From Lachnospiraceae bacterium (lineage in GTDB: Bacteria > Bacillota > Clostridia > Lachnospirales > Lachnospiraceae), in assembly GCA_024690725.1 (NCBI GenBank), contig JAILOQ010000102.1, positions 22,100-86,099 on the forward strand: 64,000 nt of DNA, read 5' to 3'. The position numbers and the translations under genes were made by a program. How positions within the stretch are numbered: the first letter of the stretch is position 1; every line of letters begins with the position of its first letter. The notes beneath the pieces are model-generated. The model worked only from the letters and a program-made list of their open reading frames with translations. It was not told the origin of the DNA and did not search any database. Shown here in pieces: positions 4,406 through 32,249 of the stretch.

Positions 4406-5311
4406 TTACAACTGTGAATCCACCTCATCCAGATCTACGATCTGAATGGTACCCGTATTTGCAACTGCAGGCTTCGGTTTTTTCAACTCATCCTTGCGGT
4501 CGTCTTCGCCCATCAGCGGATAGATCGGTTTCGGCTGTTCCAAATATTCATTCATATACTCAGCGGCGTTTCTTGCCGTCTTTTTCTTCTTTTTCTTCTT
4601 TTTCTTTTTGCCTGTCCCTTCATCAAATAAAGGGATCAATGCAAGAGTACTGACACCCAGATAATGCTCCACGTCTTCCGATGTTTTAATGGTATCATCC
4701 ACAAGATATTTCAAAAAAATGACTGCGGCACTGAAAAGAAAACCGATCATAATGCCGATCTCGGCCCATTTCACGGACGAGGGTCCCGCCGGCCGTTTGG
4801 GATAATTCGCACGGTCTACCACATTCACCGCTTCGGAATTCATCACGTTTTTGATATGCTCCGAAGCCACGGCACAAATGGCATCCGCCAGCTTTTGCGC
4901 CAGCGCCGGATCCTGATCGGTCACCGTGATATGCACAATTCTCGTATCCGTCACATTGGAAACGGAAACCTTGTCAAGGAGCTGTTCGTACTCAAGATCC
5001 AAACCGAATTCCGCGATCACGGATTCGAGTACATAACGGCTTGTGATCAATTGTTCATAGTCCTTGGTCAGCTGCGTCGCAAGCTGCGTGTCACTCAGCG
5101 TAACTGCAGTATTATCGGACTTATTCAGAATATATACGCCTGTCGTGGATTTGTAATACGGTTGCTGCGTATACTTACACAACAAAAAACCTGCCGCTCC
5201 CGCCAGGATCGTACAAATGATGACAAACCAAAGATAATGCCAAAACAGCTTCAATATCTCCGTAAGGTCGATTTCGATTTCTTCATTCGCATCTTTTAAA
5301 TTCATGTCCAT
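4406..5311 (-). CDS. CpsC/Wzz-family chain-length determinant / tyrosine-kinase modulator with an extended C-terminal tail containing a K10 tract
   Basis: It has two TM helices flanking a Wzz-like extracellular domain, and it sits between the cpsB-like and cpsD-like genes. I set the start at ATG 5311 (MDMNLKD) because the longer track ORF would overlap the cpsB-like gene. Confidence 0.8.
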   Translation of the reverse strand: MDMNLKDANEEIEIDLTEILKLFWHYLWFVIICTILAGAAGFLLCKYTQQPYYKSTTGVYILNKSDNTAVTLSDTQLATQLTKDYEQLITSRYVLESVIAEFGLDLEYEQLLDKVSVSNVTDTRIVHITVTDQDPALAQKLADAICAVASEHIKNVMNSEAVNVVDRANYPKRPAGPSSVKWAEIGIMIGFLFSAAVIFLKYLVDDTIKTSEDVEHYLGVSTLALIPLFDEGTGKKKKKKKKKKTARNAAEYMNEYLEQPKPIYPLMGEDDRKDELKKPKPAVANTGTIQIVDLDEVDSQL

Positions 5312-23786: not shown

Positions 23787-25466
23787 CTAATTTGCCAAAT
23801 AGGACTGAATGAGCGGCCAGATGTCACTCGTCTCCTGTCCCAGTCTCCAACCGGCCACGCCGCCCAGATTGTATCCGCTCATCACGGACAGTTTCACGGA
23901 AATGGAATCGTAATCCTCAAGCCATACGCATTTCCCTTCTCCGTCACTGTTCGTCCATTCCACAAAATTGCTGCAGGTCAGATCATCCCAGACCGGTGAT
24001 GCGCCCGATTCCGCAACCAATTGTTTTACCTCGGCCATACCGTATGCCGTCTGACTCACATCCCCTGTCGTCTTCCATACACGACTGTAAAAAGGAAGTG
24101 CGTTTATCACTTTTTCTGACGGAACACGTTCGAGTGCGGATTCAATCCCGCTTCTGACGAATTCCACCGATGCACAGGGACCTACGCCGTCTCCGGGAGC
24201 AACGTGTTCATCGTACCCCATTAAGATCACGTAATCCACAACTTCGCCCTGCTGTTTGATATTGTAATTTACCAAATGACTGTTGTCTGCCGAAAGATAG
24301 ATCTGATTCTTTCTGCATTCCACGGACAGCTCGCGCAAGAACTGAATGTATCCTTCCGCCGCTTCCTTGGTCACATACTCAAAGTCCACATTGATGCCGT
24401 CGATCCCATTGGAAAGAACGGTATTCATCAGACCTGCGATCAAGGCGCGTCTGCGCGATGTCACATTCACAACATCCGCGGTCACGACATCGTATTTAAA
24501 GTTATCCACCGTCGCCCATACCATCACGCCGCGGGAATGCATCGTCTGCACATAAGACGGATCCACCAGGGATTCGAAATTTCCTGCGCCGTCCGTAAGC
24601 GACATCCACGTAGGTGCGATCACGTTCACGCCTTGTGTGGCGTTCAACAGATCCGTGGCATATTGATTGGCAACCGTATTGTTCACATTATTCCAGACCA
24701 GACATACCTTGCCGTCCACGTGCATGGACGTATACTCCGGTCTCGGTATTTCATTTAAGGAAACACTTGTCACATCCTCCGGATCCGACATCCTTTTATT
24801 CTCCGTATAGCCGATAAAGCCGGATTCCGTGATCACTTCGCTCCACTCATCCATCCGTTCTTTGACCTCGACTTTTTCTCCCTTTTTCACATCACAAACA
24901 ACGGCACTTTTGATGCCGCCGAGCACACGTACCTGCGTGTCTTTTTTTATCTCCGCAAACTGTTCCGTTCCCCACTTCGTGGTCACAAAAACACGGTTCG
25001 GATCCCGGAAAAAGGTATATTCGTAATTGCATAACGTCTTTAGATAATCCGCCGCAATGTAGATATTTTCTCCGCTTTGACAGGTTAGAGGATAGGTCTC
25101 CGAACGAAACCCTTCCGATGAATTGATGTCCGTAGATCCCACCGTTGTCGTGAGAACATCGGTAGCACTCGTGAAGATCACATAGCTTTCCGTTGCATCG
25201 TGATAGAAATGATCATCGATATGCTCATCCACAAAAGCCATCGAGAAATAAACCCTTCCGTCCTGTACAAGGGCTTTTTCCTCTATCTGCTCATCGTTTA
25301 AGATGATGGTCGCGCCGGAATCTCCGGGATTACCGAAATACTCATTCAAATCCGCTCTTTCTTTGGAATAGGAGAGTTTTTGCAAGAGCATGGATCCCAC
25401 TCCGATCAGGATGATCACCAGGATCATGACAATGGCGATCAACACCGGCATATATCTTTTCTTCAT
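23787..25466 (-). CDS. Membrane-anchored glycoside hydrolase family 18-like protein with an SH3b-like module (YdhD/YaaH-like)
   Basis: The GH18 catalytic motif DGINVDFEY (DxxDxDxE) is present. It has an N-terminal TM helix and an SH3-like segment (VRVLGG...WSEVITESGFIGY). Confidence 0.8.
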   Translation of the reverse strand: MKKRYMPVLIAIVMILVIILIGVGSMLLQKLSYSKERADLNEYFGNPGDSGATIILNDEQIEEKALVQDGRVYFSMAFVDEHIDDHFYHDATESYVIFTSATDVLTTTVGSTDINSSEGFRSETYPLTCQSGENIYIAADYLKTLCNYEYTFFRDPNRVFVTTKWGTEQFAEIKKDTQVRVLGGIKSAVVCDVKKGEKVEVKERMDEWSEVITESGFIGYTENKRMSDPEDVTSVSLNEIPRPEYTSMHVDGKVCLVWNNVNNTVANQYATDLLNATQGVNVIAPTWMSLTDGAGNFESLVDPSYVQTMHSRGVMVWATVDNFKYDVVTADVVNVTSRRRALIAGLMNTVLSNGIDGINVDFEYVTKEAAEGYIQFLRELSVECRKNQIYLSADNSHLVNYNIKQQGEVVDYVILMGYDEHVAPGDGVGPCASVEFVRSGIESALERVPSEKVINALPFYSRVWKTTGDVSQTAYGMAEVKQLVAESGASPVWDDLTCSNFVEWTNSDGEGKCVWLEDYDSISVKLSVMSGYNLGGVAGWRLGQETSDIWPLIQSYLAN

Positions 25467-25524
25467 CTTTCACCTCGGTCGTCGATTTTCTCTCGACACG
25501 TTTCTTTCTTCAAATGCTTGTAAC

Positions 25525-25553
25525 ATTATAACAAAAGTTCCTCGGTTCTACAA
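25525..25553 (-). promoter_or_regulatory. Candidate promoter of the GH18 gene
   Basis: The minus strand reads TTGTAG-N17-TATAAT, with a TGn extended -10. Confidence 0.45.
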
Positions 25554-25655
25554 TGCTTAACCCCCTTTCCCCGCTCGGGCAAACTCCCGGCGCAAACCGA
25601 AATCGACATGGAAAACCCTCGTTTTCGTACCCCTTAAGCATTGTCGGCTTACAAC

Positions 25656-25988
25656 TTACGACAGTGTTACCGCATCAAACCGAATCTGGACCAGTTCCCC
25701 TTTTTCATCGGAAACGTAATCCGGCATGTAGCATACGTCTTCTCTTGCAAGCATCCGCCCGATCCGCTTGGGAGAGGCCGGTTCGTCGTCAATATACAAT
25801 TCAACACCGTTTTTTGCCTGCTCTTTCAGAGAATCCCTCCACTCCTTTGCATATTTTTTTGTTGTCTTCAATTCTTTCCCCCGTATTTTCACACTGCAAA
25901 ACACCTTCCCAAAAGGACTGTGATATATTTTCCGAATCTGTTTGAAAGTGTTTGCACAACGATTGATGCAACGATCTGCCCGGGACAT
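25656..25988 (-). CDS. Hypothetical protein of about 110 aa; no recognisable SD and start uncertain
   Basis: The open frame has plausible composition (…KVFCSVKIRGKELKTTKKYAKEWRDSLKEQAKNGVELYIDDEP…). The first ATG is at 25988 and the TTG at 25997 is the track start. A strong promoter lies about 190 nt upstream. Confidence 0.45.
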   Translation of the reverse strand: MSRADRCINRCANTFKQIRKIYHSPFGKVFCSVKIRGKELKTTKKYAKEWRDSLKEQAKNGVELYIDDEPASPKRIGRMLAREDVCYMPDYVSDEKGELVQIRFDAVTLS

Positions 25989-26190
25989 GCAGCACAAAAA
26001 TAAATGCTTTGTAAAGAATACAAAAAATAAAAATAATAAAATGAAATTGTGAATTATGTTTTTAAATCAAATTTGGAAATCTAGTCTGAAAGCACGAACG
26101 CTTTAGACCGGTACAGAATGTACCGTTTGTGATGAATTCCTCTGCCCTCCTCTCCGCTGCGGAGTATCCCGGAGGCATCTCGTGAGATTA

Positions 26191-26219
26191 ATTATAACGA
26201 ATGTGTCATTTTCTGACAA
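26191..26219 (-). promoter_or_regulatory. Strong sigma-A-type promoter reading toward the 25656-25988 ORF
   Basis: The minus strand reads TTGTCA-N17-TATAAT (cTTGTCAgaaaatgacacattcgtTATAAT). Confidence 0.6.
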
Positions 26220-26255
26220 GGGGGAAATTTCAATTCTTAAATTTTTATAACCTTA

Positions 26256-26284
26256 TTGACGTTTTCCTACCATGCTATTACAAT
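26256..26284 (+). promoter_or_regulatory. Sigma-A-type promoter of mecA; the -10 element ends 9 nt before the ATG
   Basis: TTGACG (26256-26261), a 17-nt spacer, then TACAAT (26279-26284). No SD lies between the -10 and the ATG at 26294. Confidence 0.55.
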
Positions 26285-26293
26285 ACATTTACC

Positions 26294-26986
26294 ATGAAAA
26301 TAGAACGTATCAACGACAATCAAATCCGGTGCACTTTGACCGCAAAAGATCTTGCCGCGCGCAAGATCAAGGTAAGTGAACTGGCATACGGTTCCAGAAA
26401 GGCACGCAGTCTTTTTGAGGAAATGATGCATCAGGCCGAGGAAGAATTGGGCTTTACTGCCGACGACCTTCCTTTGATGATCGAAGCGATCCCGATCAAT
26501 GCGGACTGCATCGTATTCATCATCACACGTGTGGAAGATCCGGAAGAGCTCGATACCCGTTTTTCCAAGTTCATGCCTCAGGTAACCCGTGAAGAAGACG
26601 ACGAAGAAGATGACGAAGAGGAAATCTCTTCCACCTCCTTTGATGACTTTTTGCGCCGTGCTCTCGGTGCCGAAGAGGTCACGGAGCCCGTTACGGTTTC
26701 CGTTGCTTTCCGTTTTGCGTCCTTAAACGATCTGATCTTACTTGCCAACTCCCTTCCGGAGGAAGCGCCCTGCGACAGTGCGCTCTATAAGGATGAAGCA
26801 AGTCATGAATACATTCTCTATTTACCCGCGTTATCCGACGATGATACCGCGGATATCGAGCGCTTTTGCGGTCTGCTTTCCGACTTCGGAACCCCCGACC
26901 GTTCTCTTCGTGTGCTCAATCATCACACCCCGGGATATGAGTGTCTCATTCCCGTCCATGCTCTGTCCCATTTAAAAGAGCTCTAA
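26294..26986 (+). CDS. mecA: Adaptor protein MecA (ClpC/ClpE adaptor)
   Basis: The N-terminus MKIERINDNQIRCTLTAKDL matches the MecA signature start (B. subtilis MEIERINEHT...). An acidic linker and a C-terminal domain follow. Confidence 0.85.
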   Translation: MKIERINDNQIRCTLTAKDLAARKIKVSELAYGSRKARSLFEEMMHQAEEELGFTADDLPLMIEAIPINADCIVFIITRVEDPEELDTRFSKFMPQVTREEDDEEDDEEEISSTSFDDFLRRALGAEEVTEPVTVSVAFRFASLNDLILLANSLPEEAPCDSALYKDEASHEYILYLPALSDDDTADIERFCGLLSDFGTPDRSLRVLNHHTPGYECLIPVHALSHLKEL

Positions 26987-27025
26987 AATTCTTAAAGTGT
27001 TCCCGAAAAAGTACACAGTGCCATC

Positions 27026-27054
27026 TTGCGATTGTCAATCTTTTAACCTATAAT
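27026..27054 (+). promoter_or_regulatory. Candidate promoter of the pfl locus
   Basis: TTGCGA-N17-TATAAT, about 95 nt upstream of the pfl ATG. Confidence 0.55.
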
Positions 27055-27149
27055 CAAATGTACGAGAAGGTTTGGTTTTTCAACCAAAATCTGCACCGAG
27101 CGGGTTTTACCCGTGACAATAAAATATATTTATAGGAGGCTATTGCAAA

Positions 27150-29189
27150 ATGAGACCAGAATGGACAGATTTTGTAGGCGGCAAGTGGGACAGAGAGATC
27201 AACGTACGTGATTTCATCCAGAGGAATTACACTCCCTACACAGGAGATGATTCTTTCTTAGCAGGACCTACACAGAACACAAAAGACTTATGGGATCAGG
27301 TACTTGATCTTCAGAAGCAGGAGCGTGAAGCAGGCGGTGTCCTTGATATGGATACCAAGGTAGTTTCTACCATCACCTCTCACGGACCGGGATATCTTGA
27401 TAAGAGCAAGGAGACCATCGTAGGTTTCCAGACAGACAAGCCTTTCAAGCGTTCCTTACAGCCTTACGGTGGTATCCGTATGGCAGAGAAGGCATGTGCC
27501 GACAACGGTTACACCGTAGATCCTGAGATCTCCGAGTTCTTCTCTACACACAGAAAGACACACAACGCAGGCGTATTCGATGCTTACACACCTGAGATGC
27601 GTGCATGCCGTACCGCTCACATCATCACAGGTCTTCCGGATGCTTACGGTCGTGGCCGTATCATCGGTGACTACAGACGTGTTGCTCTGTACGGTATTGA
27701 CAGATTATTAGAGGACAAGCAGGCACAGAAGGATTCCACCGGCGACGTTATGACAGATGATGTTATCCGTCTTCGCGAGGAGCTTTCCGAGCAGATGACC
27801 GCTCTTAAGATGATGAAGGAAATGGCAGCTTCTTACGGTTGCGATATTTCCAAGCCGGCAGCAAATGTTCAGGAAGCTATCCAGTGGACATACTTCGGTT
27901 ACTTATGTGCAGTTAAGGAGCAGAACGGTGCAGCAATGAGCCTTGGCCGTACTTCTACTTTCATCGACTGCTACGCAGAGAGAGATTTAAAGAACGGAAC
28001 CTTCACAGAGGAGCAGATCCAGGAATTCGTAGATCACTTCATCATGAAGTTACGTTGCATCAAGTTCGCTCGTACCCCTGAGTACAATCAGATCTTCGCA
28101 GGCGATCCGGTATGGGTTACCGAGTCCCTCGGCGGTGTTGGTATCGACGGACGTCCGATGGTTACAAAGATGAGCTTCCGTTATCTGAACACCTTGAACA
28201 ACTTAGGACCGAGCCCTGAGCCGAACCTGACTGTTCTTTGGTCCACCAGACTTCCGGAAGGCTGGAAGAAGTTCTGCGCTAAGATGTCTATCAAGACCTC
28301 TTCCATCCAGTATGAGAACGATGACCTTATGAGAGTAACACACGGCGATGACTACGGTATCGCTTGCTGCGTATCCTCCATGAGAATCGGTAAGGAAATG
28401 CAGTTCTTCGGAGCACGTGCTAACTTAGCTAAGTGCTTACTGTACGCTTTGAACGGCGGTATCGATGAGGTTACCAAGAAGCAGGTTGGCCCGAAGTATC
28501 GTCCGGTTGAAGGTGACGTACTTGATTATGATGATGTTTACGCTAAGTACATGGATATGATCGAGTGGCAGGCTAAGGTATATGTAAATACCTTGAACAT
28601 CATCCATTATATGCATGACAAGTATTGCTACGAGAGAGCTCAGATGGCTTTACATGACAGAGATGTTCGCAGATACTTCGCAACAGGTATCGCAGGTCTT
28701 TCCATCGTAGCCGACTCCTTGTCCGCTATCAAATATGCAAAGGTAGAAGTTGTTCGTGACGAAGACGGCATCATCGTTGACTTCAAGACGACCGGCGACT
28801 TCCCTAAGTATGGTAACGACGATGACCGCGTAGATGATATCGCTCAGGATATCGTTCACAAGTTCATGACAGCCGTAAGAAGACATCATACTTACAGAGA
28901 TGGTTTCCCGACCACTTCCATTCTTACGATCACATCCAACGTAACCTACGGTAAGGCTACAGGTAATACACCGGATGGTCGTAGAAAAGGACAGCCGTTT
29001 GCACCCGGTGCTAACCCGATGCACGGTCGTGATTCCCACGGTGCGGTTGCATCCCTTTCTTCCGTATCCAAGCTTCCGTTCAATGATGCACAGGATGGTA
29101 TCTCCAATACCTTCACCATCATCCCGGGCGCTCTTGGTAAAGAGGATCAGGTATTCGCAGGCGACATCGAGCTTGACTTAAATAAGTAA
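27150..29189 (+). CDS. pflB: Pyruvate formate-lyase (formate C-acetyltransferase) catalytic body lacking the C-terminal glycyl-radical domain
   Basis: The active-site Cys pair [12 protein letters not shown] is present and PFL-like sequence runs throughout. The ORF stops right after ...[23 protein letters not shown]. That point corresponds to the linker that precedes the Gly-radical domain in E. coli PflB (...NALGKDDEVRKTNLAGLMDGY...). Confidence 0.9.
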
Positions 29190-29213
29190 TTCACTACATT
29201 CGGAGGAGACGAT

Positions 29214-29417
29214 ATGGACGAAAATCAAATGGTTGAAGATTTGATCGCACAGTTGGACGGCGGAATGGCCAAAGGCACCGGACATGTGAATGTCGATGTC
29301 AACAGTTTGGCCGAAGGCGTGAAGAACGTTGAGACCATGGGCTGCGTTGATTGCAGCACAAACCCGATGGCTTGCAGCGTCCCTACGCTCCACGAAGGCT
29401 TAGACAAAGAAGAATAA
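29214..29417 (+). CDS. 67-aa ORF inserted between the PFL body and the Gly-radical module; a diverged half-copy of the radical module with a Cys-rich C-terminal part
   Basis: A strong SD (GGAGGAG) lies 5 nt before the ATG. Residues [23 protein letters not shown] align with [23 protein letters not shown] of the next ORF. The following sequence is [13 protein letters not shown] rather than RVSGYAV. Confidence 0.6.
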
Positions 29418-29434
29418 CAAAGGAGGTTTTTACC

Positions 29435-29680
29435 ATGGCAGAAGCTAGTGCAACACAGGTTGATAACTTAGTAAACTTATTAGATGGTTACGCAACAAAG
29501 GGCGGACATCATTTGAACGTTAACGTTCTTAACAGAGATACTTTATTGGATGCTCAGAAGAATCCGGAGAAGTATCCGCAGTTAACCATCCGCGTTTCCG
29601 GTTATGCAGTTAACTTCATCAAGTTGACTCCGGAGCAGCAGGCTGACGTTATCAGCAGAACATTCCACGAGTCCTTCTAA
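29435..29680 (+). CDS. Stand-alone glycyl-radical module (81 aa; GrcA/YfiD-like, equivalent to the PFL C-terminal domain)
   Basis: [59 protein letters not shown] is near-identical in pattern to the PflB/GrcA C-termini and includes the radical Gly in RVSGYAV. AGGAGG lies 8 nt before the ATG at 29435. Confidence 0.9.
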
Positions 29681-29703
29681 TTGGACGCAAAAGAATACAA
29701 ACG

Positions 29704-29739
29704 AAAGCCCTTCGTCATATGGCGAAGGGCTTTTCTTTA
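29704..29739 (+). terminator. Rho-independent terminator or attenuator after the Gly-radical module
   Basis: AAAGCCCTTCG-loop-CGAAGGGCTTT followed by TCTTTAT. Confidence 0.7.
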
Positions 29740-29779
29740 TGCTAGAATAAACGTATCAAAGAACGAAGGAGATAAGCCT

Positions 29780-30550
29780 ATGAGCGGAAGAATTCACTCT
29801 CTCGAAAGTTTCGGTACCGTTGACGGACCCGGAACCAGATATGTCGTATTTGTACAAGGCTGCCCCATGCGCTGCCTCTACTGCCATAATCCCGATACCT
29901 GGGCGATGACCGGCGGTAAGATCATGGAAGCTTCCTACATCATGGAACAATACGACCGCAACAAAGCCTTCTATCAGAATGGCGGCGGCATCACGGTCAC
30001 CGGCGGTGAGCCTCTCATGCAGGTCGACTTTCTGATCGAGTTATTCACCCTGGCCAAAGAACGTGGTGTGCACACTTGCATCGATTCTTCCGGTATCGCG
30101 TTTAACGCCAAGAATACGGCTTTCATCGAAAAACTGGATAAGTTGATGACCTTAACGGACCTCGTTATGCTCGATATCAAACACATTGACCCTGTTAAGC
30201 ATAAGGAACTGACCAGTCAACCCAACGAAGGCATCCTGGCCTTTGCATCCTACTTAAACGACAAGGGTGTCCATATGTGGATCCGCCACGTTGTGGTACC
30301 CGGCTGGACGGATGATCCGAAGTATTTATATGATCTTGGTTACTTCATCGGGCAGTTTACCAACATGACGGCCCTCGATGTCTTGCCGTATCACGATATG
30401 GCCAAGAAAAAATACGAAGAACTCGGCATCGACTATGTATTAAAGGATGTTCCGCCGATGGATAAGGCAAGAGTTCCGGAATTAAAGGCACACATCCTTG
30501 ACGGGATCAAGAAACGCCGTGAAGAGCTGGGCATTACCCATCATACCTAA
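29780..30550 (+). CDS. pflA: Pyruvate formate-lyase activating enzyme (radical SAM)
   Basis: The sequence SFGTVDGPGTRYVVFVQGCPMRCLYCHNPD carries the CxxxCxxC radical-SAM cluster motif of PflA. GAAGGAGA lies 7 nt upstream of the ATG at 29780. Confidence 0.93.
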   Translation: MSGRIHSLESFGTVDGPGTRYVVFVQGCPMRCLYCHNPDTWAMTGGKIMEASYIMEQYDRNKAFYQNGGGITVTGGEPLMQVDFLIELFTLAKERGVHTCIDSSGIAFNAKNTAFIEKLDKLMTLTDLVMLDIKHIDPVKHKELTSQPNEGILAFASYLNDKGVHMWIRHVVVPGWTDDPKYLYDLGYFIGQFTNMTALDVLPYHDMAKKKYEELGIDYVLKDVPPMDKARVPELKAHILDGIKKRREELGITHHT

Positions 30551-30632
30551 TTACGGGAAATCTATTGCTTTTTTTCGATTTCTACCATATAATGACCTTA
30601 ACGAGACTTTTTATCAAAAAGGAGGGTCGATT

Positions 30633-30803
30633 ATGGCTTACGTAATTAATGACGGCTGCGTAGCATGCGGTGCTTGTGAAGGTGCTTGCCCTGTAGGAGC
30701 TATCAGCATGGGCGATTCCAAGTATGAAATTGATGCAGATACATGTATCGATTGCGGTACCTGCGCAGGACAGTGTCCGACAGGATCTATCAGCCCTCAG
30801 TAA
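30633..30803 (+). CDS. Clostridial-type 2x[4Fe-4S] ferredoxin (56 aa)
   Basis: Two CxxCxxCxxxCP motifs are present (CVACGACEGACP and CIDCGTCAGQCP). AAAGGAGGG lies 6 nt before the ATG. Confidence 0.9.
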   Translation: MAYVINDGCVACGACEGACPVGAISMGDSKYEIDADTCIDCGTCAGQCPTGSISPQ

Positions 30804-30810
30804 TAAGACA

Positions 30811-30842
30811 AAAAAAGAACTGCGATGAGCAGTTCTTTTTTT
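30811..30842. terminator. Bidirectional terminator between the ferredoxin gene (+) and dnaB (-)
   Basis: AAAAAAGAACTGC-GATGA-GCAGTTCTTTTTTT. Confidence 0.85.
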
Positions 30843-30872
30843 GTGCTATTTTTTTGTAAAACATCGTCCGTA

Positions 30873-32249
30873 TCAATACTCTTCCTGCTTCGCATACCGC
30901 TGCTCGCCTTCCAAGTTGGCGAACTTCGTGTACTCCCCAAGCCAGGCCAGCTTTGTCGTACCGATCGGGCCGTTTCTTTGCTTGGCGATATTGATCTCAG
31001 CAACACCCTGTTCTTTGGAATCTTTATTGTAATAATCGTCACGATAAATAAACATGACCACATCCGCATCCTGCTCGATCGCACCGGAATCACGAAGATC
31101 CGAAAGCATCGGCCGCTTATCCGATCTGCCTTCCACGGAACGGGATAACTGGCTGAGCGCAATGACCGGAACATCCAACTCTCTTGCAACCGCCTTTAGG
31201 GAACGGGAAATCTCGGATATCTCCTGATTTCGGGAATCCGAAGCAGCACCCTTTCCACTTCCGCTCATCAGCTGAAGATAATCGATGATCACCAGATCCA
31301 ATCCGTTCTCCACCTTAAACTTTCGGCACTTGCTCCGAAGTTCCGACGCAGTGATACCGGGCGTTGCATCGATAAACAGCTTTGTCTTTCCCAGTCGATC
31401 TGCTCCGATCAGGAGGTTGTCCCACTCTTCGTCATTCAAATCTCCGATACGCATCTTTCCGGCATTCACGCTCGATTCCAGAGACAGCATACGATTGATC
31501 AGCTGAACCTCCGACATCTCCAACGAAAAGATCGCTACCGATTTGTTTTCACGCGTGACCACATGATGTGCGATATTTAACACAAACGCAGTCTTACCCA
31601 TGGAAGGACGCGCTGCCACAAGGACCAGATCGGAATTCTGTAAGCCTGCCATCTTGTAATCCAGATCCGTAAATCCGGTTGGGATACCGGTGATGTTTCC
31701 TTTTGTCTGATAAGCCTTTGCGATCCTGTCGACGGCTTCTTTCAAAATATCGTCGATCGGCCTGACCTCATTCCCGCTACGGTTCTGCAAGAGGGAAAAC
31801 ACTTTCTTTTCGGTCTCTTCGAGGAGCGTATCCGTATCGTCTTTGCCAAGAAAACAAGCATCCCCGATCTCTTTCGTGGTACGGATCAGTTTTCGCAAAA
31901 CAGACTTTTCGTACACGATATTCGCATACTCACGAACCTGTCTGCTCGACGGCAGTTCCGTCACCAGATTTCCGAAAAACGCCGCATTGTTGATCTCTGC
32001 CGGCATGGATAACTGATTTAATTTGTTCTGTAAGGTAACGATATCCACCGTTCCCTGTTCATCATTGATATCTTTGATCGCCTGAAAGATCGTCCCAAAA
32101 TGCTTGGAATAAAAATCATCCTTACCGATCACGGTAGACGCAGTATAGATCGCATCACGATCCATGAGCATTGCCGCGATCACGCTTTTTTCCGCAAGGT
32201 CACTGTGGGGCATTTCCCTGGCGATCGTTGTGTATTCTTCCGAAGGCAT
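30873..32249 (-). CDS. dnaB: Replicative DNA helicase
   Basis: Walker A ARPSMGKTAF is present, with DnaB motifs (IIDYLQLM, ALSQLSR). I set the start at ATG 32249, which follows AAGGAGAA. Confidence 0.95.
   Translation of the reverse strand: MPSEEYTTIAREMPHSDLAEKSVIAAMLMDRDAIYTASTVIGKDDFYSKHFGTIFQAIKDINDEQGTVDIVTLQNKLNQLSMPAEINNAAFFGNLVTELPSSRQVREYANIVYEKSVLRKLIRTTKEIGDACFLGKDDTDTLLEETEKKVFSLLQNRSGNEVRPIDDILKEAVDRIAKAYQTKGNITGIPTGFTDLDYKMAGLQNSDLVLVAARPSMGKTAFVLNIAHHVVTRENKSVAIFSLEMSEVQLINRMLSLESSVNAGKMRIGDLNDEEWDNLLIGADRLGKTKLFIDATPGITASELRSKCRKFKVENGLDLVIIDYLQLMSGSGKGAASDSRNQEISEISRSLKAVARELDVPVIALSQLSRSVEGRSDKRPMLSDLRDSGAIEQDADVVMFIYRDDYYNKDSKEQGVAEINIAKQRNGPIGTTKLAWLGEYTKFANLEGEQRYAKQEEY

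Follow-up and report, generated by a model that had tools for sequence, protein, structure and literature searches.

A conserved Lachnospiraceae operon that probably encodes a naturally split pyruvate formate-lyase

Pyruvate formate-lyase (PFL), the most widespread glycyl radical enzyme (GRE), is a principal source of acetyl-CoA and formate in anaerobes of the gut. When PFL is a single chain, its radical domain has to swing away from the barrel before the activase can act on it, and damage by oxygen means the loss of all 85 kDa. The small protein GrcA/YfiD can rescue oxygen-cleaved PFL as a spare part, and PflB in those systems keeps its own radical domain. Here, we analyze a stretch of 64,000 nucleotides from a Lachnospiraceae bacterium (GenBank assembly GCA_024690725.1, contig JAILOQ010000102.1, positions 22,100 to 86,099, forward strand; the whole stretch is hereafter called the window), in which a PFL catalytic core of 679 amino acids (aa) and a glycyl-radical domain of 81 aa are encoded by separate genes, with a gene for a 67-aa protein between them. 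We propose, with a probability of roughly 0.65, that this locus encodes a naturally split, heteromeric PFL that receives its radical domain in trans and that the 67-aa protein is a degenerate paralogue of that domain derived from a tandem duplication.

Benzylsuccinate synthase (alpha-beta-gamma) and 4-hydroxyphenylacetate decarboxylase likewise combine a large GRE subunit with accessory subunits of 60 to 90 aa encoded in the same operon. In both enzymes, the large subunit carries the radical domain and [4Fe-4S] clusters are bound by the small ones, whereas here the small subunit is the radical domain itself and the 67-aa protein has two broadly conserved Cys residues only. Relative to single-chain PflB of Escherichia coli (PDB entries 1H16 and 2PFL), the core aligns over E. 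coli residues 10 to 681 with 991 bits, and the Cys pair, the barrel, the RVSGYAV loop, and the PflA activase are all found in the locus. It differs from PflB in that the equivalent of residues ~681 to 759 lies on a separate 81-aa chain, the core carries a new 11-aa tail, and the 67-aa gene stands in between. The 81-aa protein shares with GrcA/YfiD (6OWR, TIGR04365) a stand-alone format with a radical loop, scoring 90.6 bits to 6OWR, but it lacks the 60-aa disordered N terminus of YfiD, keeps the native lead-in helix, and is encoded inside the pfl operon beside a core that itself lacks a radical domain. YfiD can supply the radical domain to a PFL core in trans (PMC8683613), and the engineered E. 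coli combination of tPFL(1-695) with YfiD is as active as the wild type once activated (Andorfer et al. 2021, PMC8683613). Both that artificial system and the locus described here pair a PFL core devoid of the whole radical domain with a separate radical module. The natural break lies ~13 to 15 residues further upstream, however, and the natural system has in addition the tail and the 67-aa protein, which may solve the problem of weak binding discussed below. A 2026 review of GREs mentions only spare parts of the YfiD type, and full-text literature searches returned no publication that deals with the small protein or with a PFL split in nature.

The elements of the locus, in window coordinates, are as follows.
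27150..29189, + strand: PFL catalytic core gene, 679 aa (open reading frame [ORF] list and raw sequence; domain matches)
28365..28370, + strand: catalytic Cys pair C406-C407 in GIACCVSS, residues 403 to 410 (translation)
29154..29186, + strand: 11-aa acidic tail of the core, conserved and found in split-type cores only
29202..29208, + strand: Shine-Dalgarno (SD) site GGAGGAG of the 67-aa ORF (sequence)
29214..29417, + strand: 67-aa small-protein ORF, with its own SD site and stop codon
29420..29426, + strand: SD site AAGGAGG of the radical-subunit ORF (sequence)
29435..29680, + strand: 81-aa glycyl-radical subunit of the GrcA3 type, ATG at 29435 (PF01228, NF038360, and TIGR01255 matches)
29600-29602, + strand: codon of the radical Gly56 in the loop TIRVSGYAV (translation)
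29780..30550, + strand: pflA, the PFL-activating radical S-adenosylmethionine (SAM) enzyme, 256 aa from the ATG at 29780 (TIGR02493, PF04055, PF13353)
30633..30803, + strand: 2x[4Fe-4S] ferredoxin, 56 aa (PF00037, PF12838)

Between them, two polypeptides from this locus contain every part of a PFL; an activase is encoded as well, and all of these parts are strongly constrained and strictly co-inherited. The core scores 1,098 bits against TIGR01255 (formate C-acetyltransferase), above the equivalog cutoff of 994, over positions 2 to 665 of 744, and 733 bits against the PFL-like barrel model PF02901. The RVSGYAV loop is not on the core polypeptide but on the separate 81-aa ORF, which covers TIGR01255 positions 663 to 743; thus, the two products tile one PFL with nothing missing. 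The Pfam Gly_radical model is divided in the same manner, with positions 1 to 51 of 106 on the core and 50 to 106 on the 81-aa ORF. C406 and C407, equivalent to E. coli C418/C419, are invariant in a 10-row alignment of diverse split cores, and the pflA product scores 293 bits against TIGR02493 (cutoff, 232).

The position of the break can be read directly from fused relatives. Across the junction, these have ALGKEDEV-QVRNLVSMLDGY or ALGKDEAAQENNLVAMLDGY, while the window core ends in GKEDQV plus the 11-aa tail and the radical ORF resumes at QVDNLV. As the fused relatives align across the junction, the break falls exactly between GKEDQV and QVDNLV, corresponding approximately to E. coli PflB residues 680 to 683 (numbering from 1H16 alignments). 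The stop codon of the core and the ATG of the radical ORF are separated by 245 nucleotides (nt; 29190-29434), and the order is core, 24 nt, 67-aa ORF, 17 nt, 81-aa ORF. Together, the tail, the stop codon, the small gene, and a 7-aa leader make up a cassette of ~300 nt inside the linker, and no PFL residue is lost. An earlier sequence-only reading had placed the end of the GIACCVSS-containing frame at 29189, at the linker before the radical domain, with that domain 245 nt further on as an 81-aa ORF with its own SD site, an SD-equipped 67-aa ORF in between, and pflA and a ferredoxin following; the ORF list, the alignment of fused relatives, the two SD sites, and the family matches bear all of this out.

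The tail is absent from fused PFLs, where the linker into the radical domain stands in its place. Its motif, F(A/S)GD(I/L)(E/D)(L/V/I)DL(N/S)K, is found in 33 of 33 aligned species and is retained as IF(V/M)GDL(E/D)L(E/D)L in cores of 72 to 76% identity. The best PDB matches to the core are two chains named “Formate acetyltransferase,” 38la (687 aa, 1,110 bits) and 38lb (739 aa, 1,140 bits), neither of which matches the glycyl-radical domain. The former ends in NSLGKED, which is the natural split point, and the latter continues with GKSGNVMFGECDM, resembling the split-type tail, plus about 43 more residues. Both are absent from a PDB structure library ending on 2026-04-08 and were released later; we found no papers citing them, and no PDB partner chain resembling the 81-aa or the 67-aa protein is on record. 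Given these entries, similar cores may already be under study by others. Our own AlphaFold2 model of the core was poor (predicted local distance difference test [pLDDT], 48.5), and a Foldseek search with it returned only the expected E. coli PFL and other GREs. A chimeric junction query for the nearest fused PFLs matched mostly fragments at contig ends, the best match being 81% identical across the junction.

To place the locus among its relatives, we relied on one scan of species-representative genomes, from which 80 loci were kept for tBLASTN comparison; L001 to L005 and L096 to L099 were inspected as well. The 67-aa protein is encoded in at least 588 species-representative genomes, nearly all of them Lachnospiraceae. 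In all loci inspected (at least 87, from many projects and species), the core, the small ORF, and the radical ORF occur in this order and always as separate ORFs. Across the 80 loci, the core (query residues 1 to 679) is 85 to 95% identical and always has the same end point, the radical ORF is 81 to 98% and the small ORF 56 to 79% identical, and each of the three has its own stop-to-stop frame. PflA, at 61 to 83% identity, ranks below the core and the radical ORF, and its gene usually lies 3' of the trio. The same layout is found in Acetatifactor muris and two other metagenome-assembled genomes (MAGs), and it is kept in low-GC contigs in which the small protein is 34 to 45% and the core 72 to 76% identical. 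Pairwise ratios of nonsynonymous to synonymous substitution (dN/dS) are ~0.04 for the core, 0.07 for the small ORF, 0.05 for the radical ORF, and 0.03 for pflA, values that are rough because dS is near saturation. Whether the break is fixed at one point had been left to related genomes by the sequence-only reading; it recurs in every related locus examined.

Some loci depart from the common pattern in their details. In L026, L027, L032, L040, L042, L060, L071, and L076, pflA lies ~2 kb 3' of the radical ORF or on the opposite strand, which points to inserted DNA between the two, and the core, small ORF, and radical ORF are still contiguous. The MAGs JAGBMJ01 (L040, L045) and JAEEIK01 (L026, L041) each have two contigs with a split operon, reflecting either a duplicated operon or bin redundancy. 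Two loci labelled Bacteroides sp. (L031) and Muribaculum sp. (L078) carry a split operon of the Lachnospiraceae type with a core of 91 to 93% identity, probably through binning contamination. Two further kinds of split were considered and rejected: one of 536 plus 202 aa (L092, 3900-3905; also L093) is an artefact of a run of N in the scaffold, and one of 380 plus 101 plus 170 aa (L094/L095, 2296-4513) comes from a frameshifted assembly.

The 81-aa protein consists of an N-terminal helix, the strand GGHHLNVNV, the loop TIRVSGYAV, and a C-terminal helix. It scores 82.6 bits against PF01228 and 157.6 bits against NF038360, “autonomous glycyl radical cofactor GrcA3” (curated cutoff, 158), over positions 2 to 77 of 78. 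Its scores fall below the cutoffs of the GrcA/YfiD model TIGR04365 (101.5 versus 170) and the GrcA2 model NF008341 (106.6 versus 145). In structural terms, it has what defines a spare part, being a small stand-alone protein with a glycyl-radical loop and its own SD site and stop codon. Its best 120 database homologues are all 79 to 136 aa long. Homologues of 88 to 91% identity, the A. muris operon copy among them, are named GrcA3 by NCBI (several of them GrcA3 or GrcA); full-text literature searches returned no publication on the GrcA3 family. The name implies a repair part, whereas here the module is apparently the only radical domain available to the adjacent core; the existing NCBI name covers a spare part and not a subunit of a split enzyme.

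Homologues of the 67-aa protein fall into 43 clusters when grouped at 90% identity, with every named source belonging to the Lachnospiraceae, and into 224 clusters at 50% identity. All are 36 to 140 aa long, none is fused to a PFL, and at every locus looked at the gene lies in this operon. No Pfam or NCBIfam family matches the protein, and PDB sequence searches with small-protein profiles gave chance matches only and no relative. Its first ~31 residues (a helix followed by a GHVNVDV strand) match the start of the radical module, a segment that in single-chain PFL forms the lead-in helix and the tenth barrel strand (PMC8683613). BLASTP aligns the 67-aa protein with the radical ORF at an E value of 1e-5. 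With hhalign, the probability of homology between the small family and the radical domain rises from 65% with shallow profiles to 95.8% (E value, 6.7e-9) with wider profiles of 113 small-family and 228 radical-domain sequences. Gly_radical is also the commonest weak Pfam match among small-family members (5 of 60; best E value, 0.005). These alignments identify the N-terminal half of the small protein as paralogous to the radical module. In its C-terminal half, which carries the motif (D/E)C-x5-7-AC-x-(V/I)P(T/N)L-x-x-G-x-D, RVSGYAV is missing and no glycine is conserved where the radical one would be. Of the Cys residues, C47 and C54 alone hold throughout the wider family, C44 being lost in many members, and His24 is widely conserved; the four-Cys cluster-binding motif of the Fe-S small subunits of GREs is absent. 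A register in which hhalign set G43 opposite the radical glycine was rejected, since G43 is not conserved in the wider family and the per-column confidence is near zero. The three-cistron split described in the sequence-only reading is therefore real and conserved, but its “insert ORF” is not a passive insertion: it belongs to a conserved family with an N-terminal half paralogous to the radical module.

How might such a system work? The 679-aa core would provide the barrel and the catalytic Cys pair and end at the flexible linker with its conserved acidic tail. The 81-aa subunit would contribute the missing piece in trans, namely the lead-in helix, the tenth barrel strand, the glycyl-radical loop, and the C-terminal helix, and PflA, encoded just 3', would install the radical, as in single-chain PFL by homology. 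Once cleaved by oxygen, the radical subunit could be swapped without the core having to be remade. Purifying selection has preserved the split, and the best reading is therefore a core that depends on a radical subunit supplied in trans; it is reasonable to suppose that this dependence would be obligate and that repair would proceed by subunit exchange. The 67-aa protein appears to have kept the helix-strand docking module and to have exchanged the glycyl-loop region for a Cys-containing motif. Its most likely role, offered as a hypothesis, would be to bind the core through the docking module at or beside the socket of the radical domain as a placeholder, an assembly factor, or a regulator. 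What would make assembly in trans efficient is most plausibly sought in the lead-in helix on the subunit, the acidic tail, and the 67-aa paralogue. As for its origin, the cassette of tail, small ORF, and leader is best read as an insertion between GKEDQV and QVDNLV of an ancestral fused gene. The small gene probably arose by tandem duplication of the segment coding for the radical domain, with subsequent loss of the radical loop, because its length, its position, and its helix-strand order fit such an origin.

A more specific and decidedly speculative version, which we hold possible though rather unlikely, casts the 67-aa protein as a glycine-less dummy that plugs the socket of the core with its helix-strand module and places a conserved Cys where the glycyl loop would sit. 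Activity would be switched on and off, and the enzyme protected from oxygen, by exchange of the dummy for the live subunit, with PflA acting off the enzyme. If this is true, PFL would be controlled in a way that has not been described for any GRE.

Several observations count against a split PFL with a paralogous small protein, or lessen its novelty. In E. coli, binding between tPFL and YfiD is too weak to measure, and activation is 32-fold lower (PMC8683613); thus, complementation in trans is not automatic. The confident alignment of the small protein to the radical domain is confined to its first ~31 residues. Modelled alone with AlphaFold2 from a 25-row alignment, the 67-aa protein has a pLDDT of 55, a helix at residues 3 to 19 only, and no confident fold, a result that is compatible with folding on a partner and proves nothing. 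A neighbor-joining tree of the 125 aa before the junction does not resolve a single origin of the split cores. The 81-aa module already had a curated NCBI model and name. Finally, orphan GrcA3-type genes, 89 to 90% identical, occur far from any PFL (L006 to L008 and L100 to L109, with the gene at 5001-5246 or 1001-1246, and also L009 to L011). One set of these orphans always lies directly 3' of a gene for a Crp/Fnr-family regulator, and another lies beside the spoIIIA operon. Because orphan copies exist, the GrcA3 module is not exclusive to split operons; the family comprises both operon subunits and orphan copies.

These orphans, some of them next to a Crp/Fnr-type regulator, and the family name at NCBI would fit a classical spare-part model, in which the 81-aa protein serves only, in the manner of GrcA, to repair a full-length PFL from another locus and the 679-aa gene is a truncated paralogue with no function or a different one. 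We consider this model very unlikely: within the locus, conservation is strongest in the truncated core (85 to 95% identity, dN/dS of 0.04, invariant Cys pair), which in every case stops at one and the same residue after a conserved tail. The radical module is always found 3' of it, usually with pflA, and no activity is known for a core lacking a radical domain. No other PFL was found in the 64-kb window. Nor can the three ORFs be the product of an assembly or sequencing error or of the recent pseudogenisation of a normal pflB of ~750 aa. Fragmented PFL calls do exist in public assemblies, as in L092/L093 (a scaffold gap) and L094/L095 (frameshifts), but an error, a recent pseudogene, and a chance ORF are all excluded here because the layout recurs with identical boundaries in at least 87 independent loci, the tail is conserved, and the intervening 245 nt code for a protein under purifying selection, with strong SD sites before both downstream ORFs; the comparative data refute this explanation. 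The mature enzyme could still be a single chain if the pieces were rejoined through split inteins (a fractured gene), translational bypassing or frameshifting, or RNA splicing. T4-type phages have nrdD genes split by introns or endonucleases. Genes that are split by an inserted ORF and rejoined through split inteins have been documented (PMC2677866), but in our locus the core tail (11 aa) and the leader of the radical ORF (7 aa) are too short for intein halves, there is no nucleophile and no HNH or LAGLIDADG domain, and the small ORF has no Pfam match; on flank length and absent domains, we rejected the split-intein model. The gap holds a conserved, translated ORF with its own SD site and stop codon, and an Rfam scan of 25400 to 31000 gave no RNA-family or intron match above threshold, which leaves rejoining of any kind barely credible.

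Two other models accept the split PFL and differ in what they assign to the 67-aa protein. It might act on the activase, either as a glycine-less decoy or adaptor that binds PflA or by handing over or gating the free radical subunit. In favor of this, PflA must engage that part of the radical domain to which the small protein is similar, and the small protein lacks the RVSGYAV motif and is largely disordered when modelled alone. In E. coli, the N-terminal half of YfiD plays a part in its activation by the PFL-activating enzyme (PMC8683613). However, the small protein has no detectable similarity to the N-terminal region of YfiD, and pflA is not always adjacent to the small ORF, while the core and the radical ORF always are; we regard a role on the activase as unlikely. 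Alternatively, it might take no part in PFL assembly and have only the transcript in common with it, for example as a peptide precursor, a metal-binding protein, or a small protein with a thiol or redox function, as the widely conserved C47, C54, and His24 and the lack of a recognisable family could suggest. Such an independent role seems quite improbable to us because the protein strictly co-occurs with the other genes and keeps its place in every locus examined, even at 34% identity, and because its N-terminal half is homologous to the radical domain. Moreover, two conserved Cys residues are too few for an Fe-S site like those of the small subunits of benzylsuccinate synthase or 4-hydroxyphenylacetate decarboxylase, and the only adjoining radical SAM gene (within 4 to 5 kb on each side) is a standard pflA.

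A naturally separate radical subunit of 9 kDa would permit the docking, the activation, and the exchange of damaged domains to be studied directly, questions that have so far been probed only with poorly binding engineered fragments of the E. coli enzyme. Efficient complementation in trans may be owed to the conserved tail and the 67-aa paralogue. Genome annotation is also affected, in hundreds of genomes from the Lachnospiraceae: what is called a “GrcA3 spare part” beside pflB is probably a subunit that the enzyme cannot do without, the “formate C-acetyltransferase” of 679 aa is incomplete alone, and the intervening “hypothetical protein” is part of the system. The sequence-only reading knew of no description of such an enzyme. 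In agreement with it, we found no paper on a natural split PFL, but the arrangement is common in public genomes and the radical module already bears a curated name; hence, the novelty is moderate. Within the searches made, the undescribed elements are the 67-aa family and the conserved tail.

The gene mecA lies 5' of the locus, and dnaB and rplI lie 3' on the other strand. The downstream ferredoxin is kept in the relatives L001 and L004 and is a candidate electron donor for PflA. Two further elements were recognized by pattern alone.
27026..27054, + strand: promoter-like site TTGCGA-17-TATAAT, 5' of the core gene (10 of 12 in a consensus scan; pattern match only)
29703..29734, + strand: terminator-like hairpin with a 14-bp stem and a T-run, in the gap between the radical-subunit gene and pflA (pattern match only)

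Between the ferredoxin gene and the convergent dnaB, positions 30808-30844 form a perfect 16-bp hairpin flanked by an A-run and a T-run, resembling a bidirectional terminator. A sub-threshold Rfam match to OrzO-P (32 bits versus 60) overlaps this hairpin and is probably caused by it. No tRNA genes were found in the window. In the ~700 nt 5' of mecA (25470-26200), the ORFs are all short and overlapping, and Rfam gives no match at an E value below 0.1. Between mecA and the PFL core, where the window has ~160 nt only, L001 (2423-2614) and L004 (2199-2390) carry a 63-aa DUF1858 gene on the minus strand.

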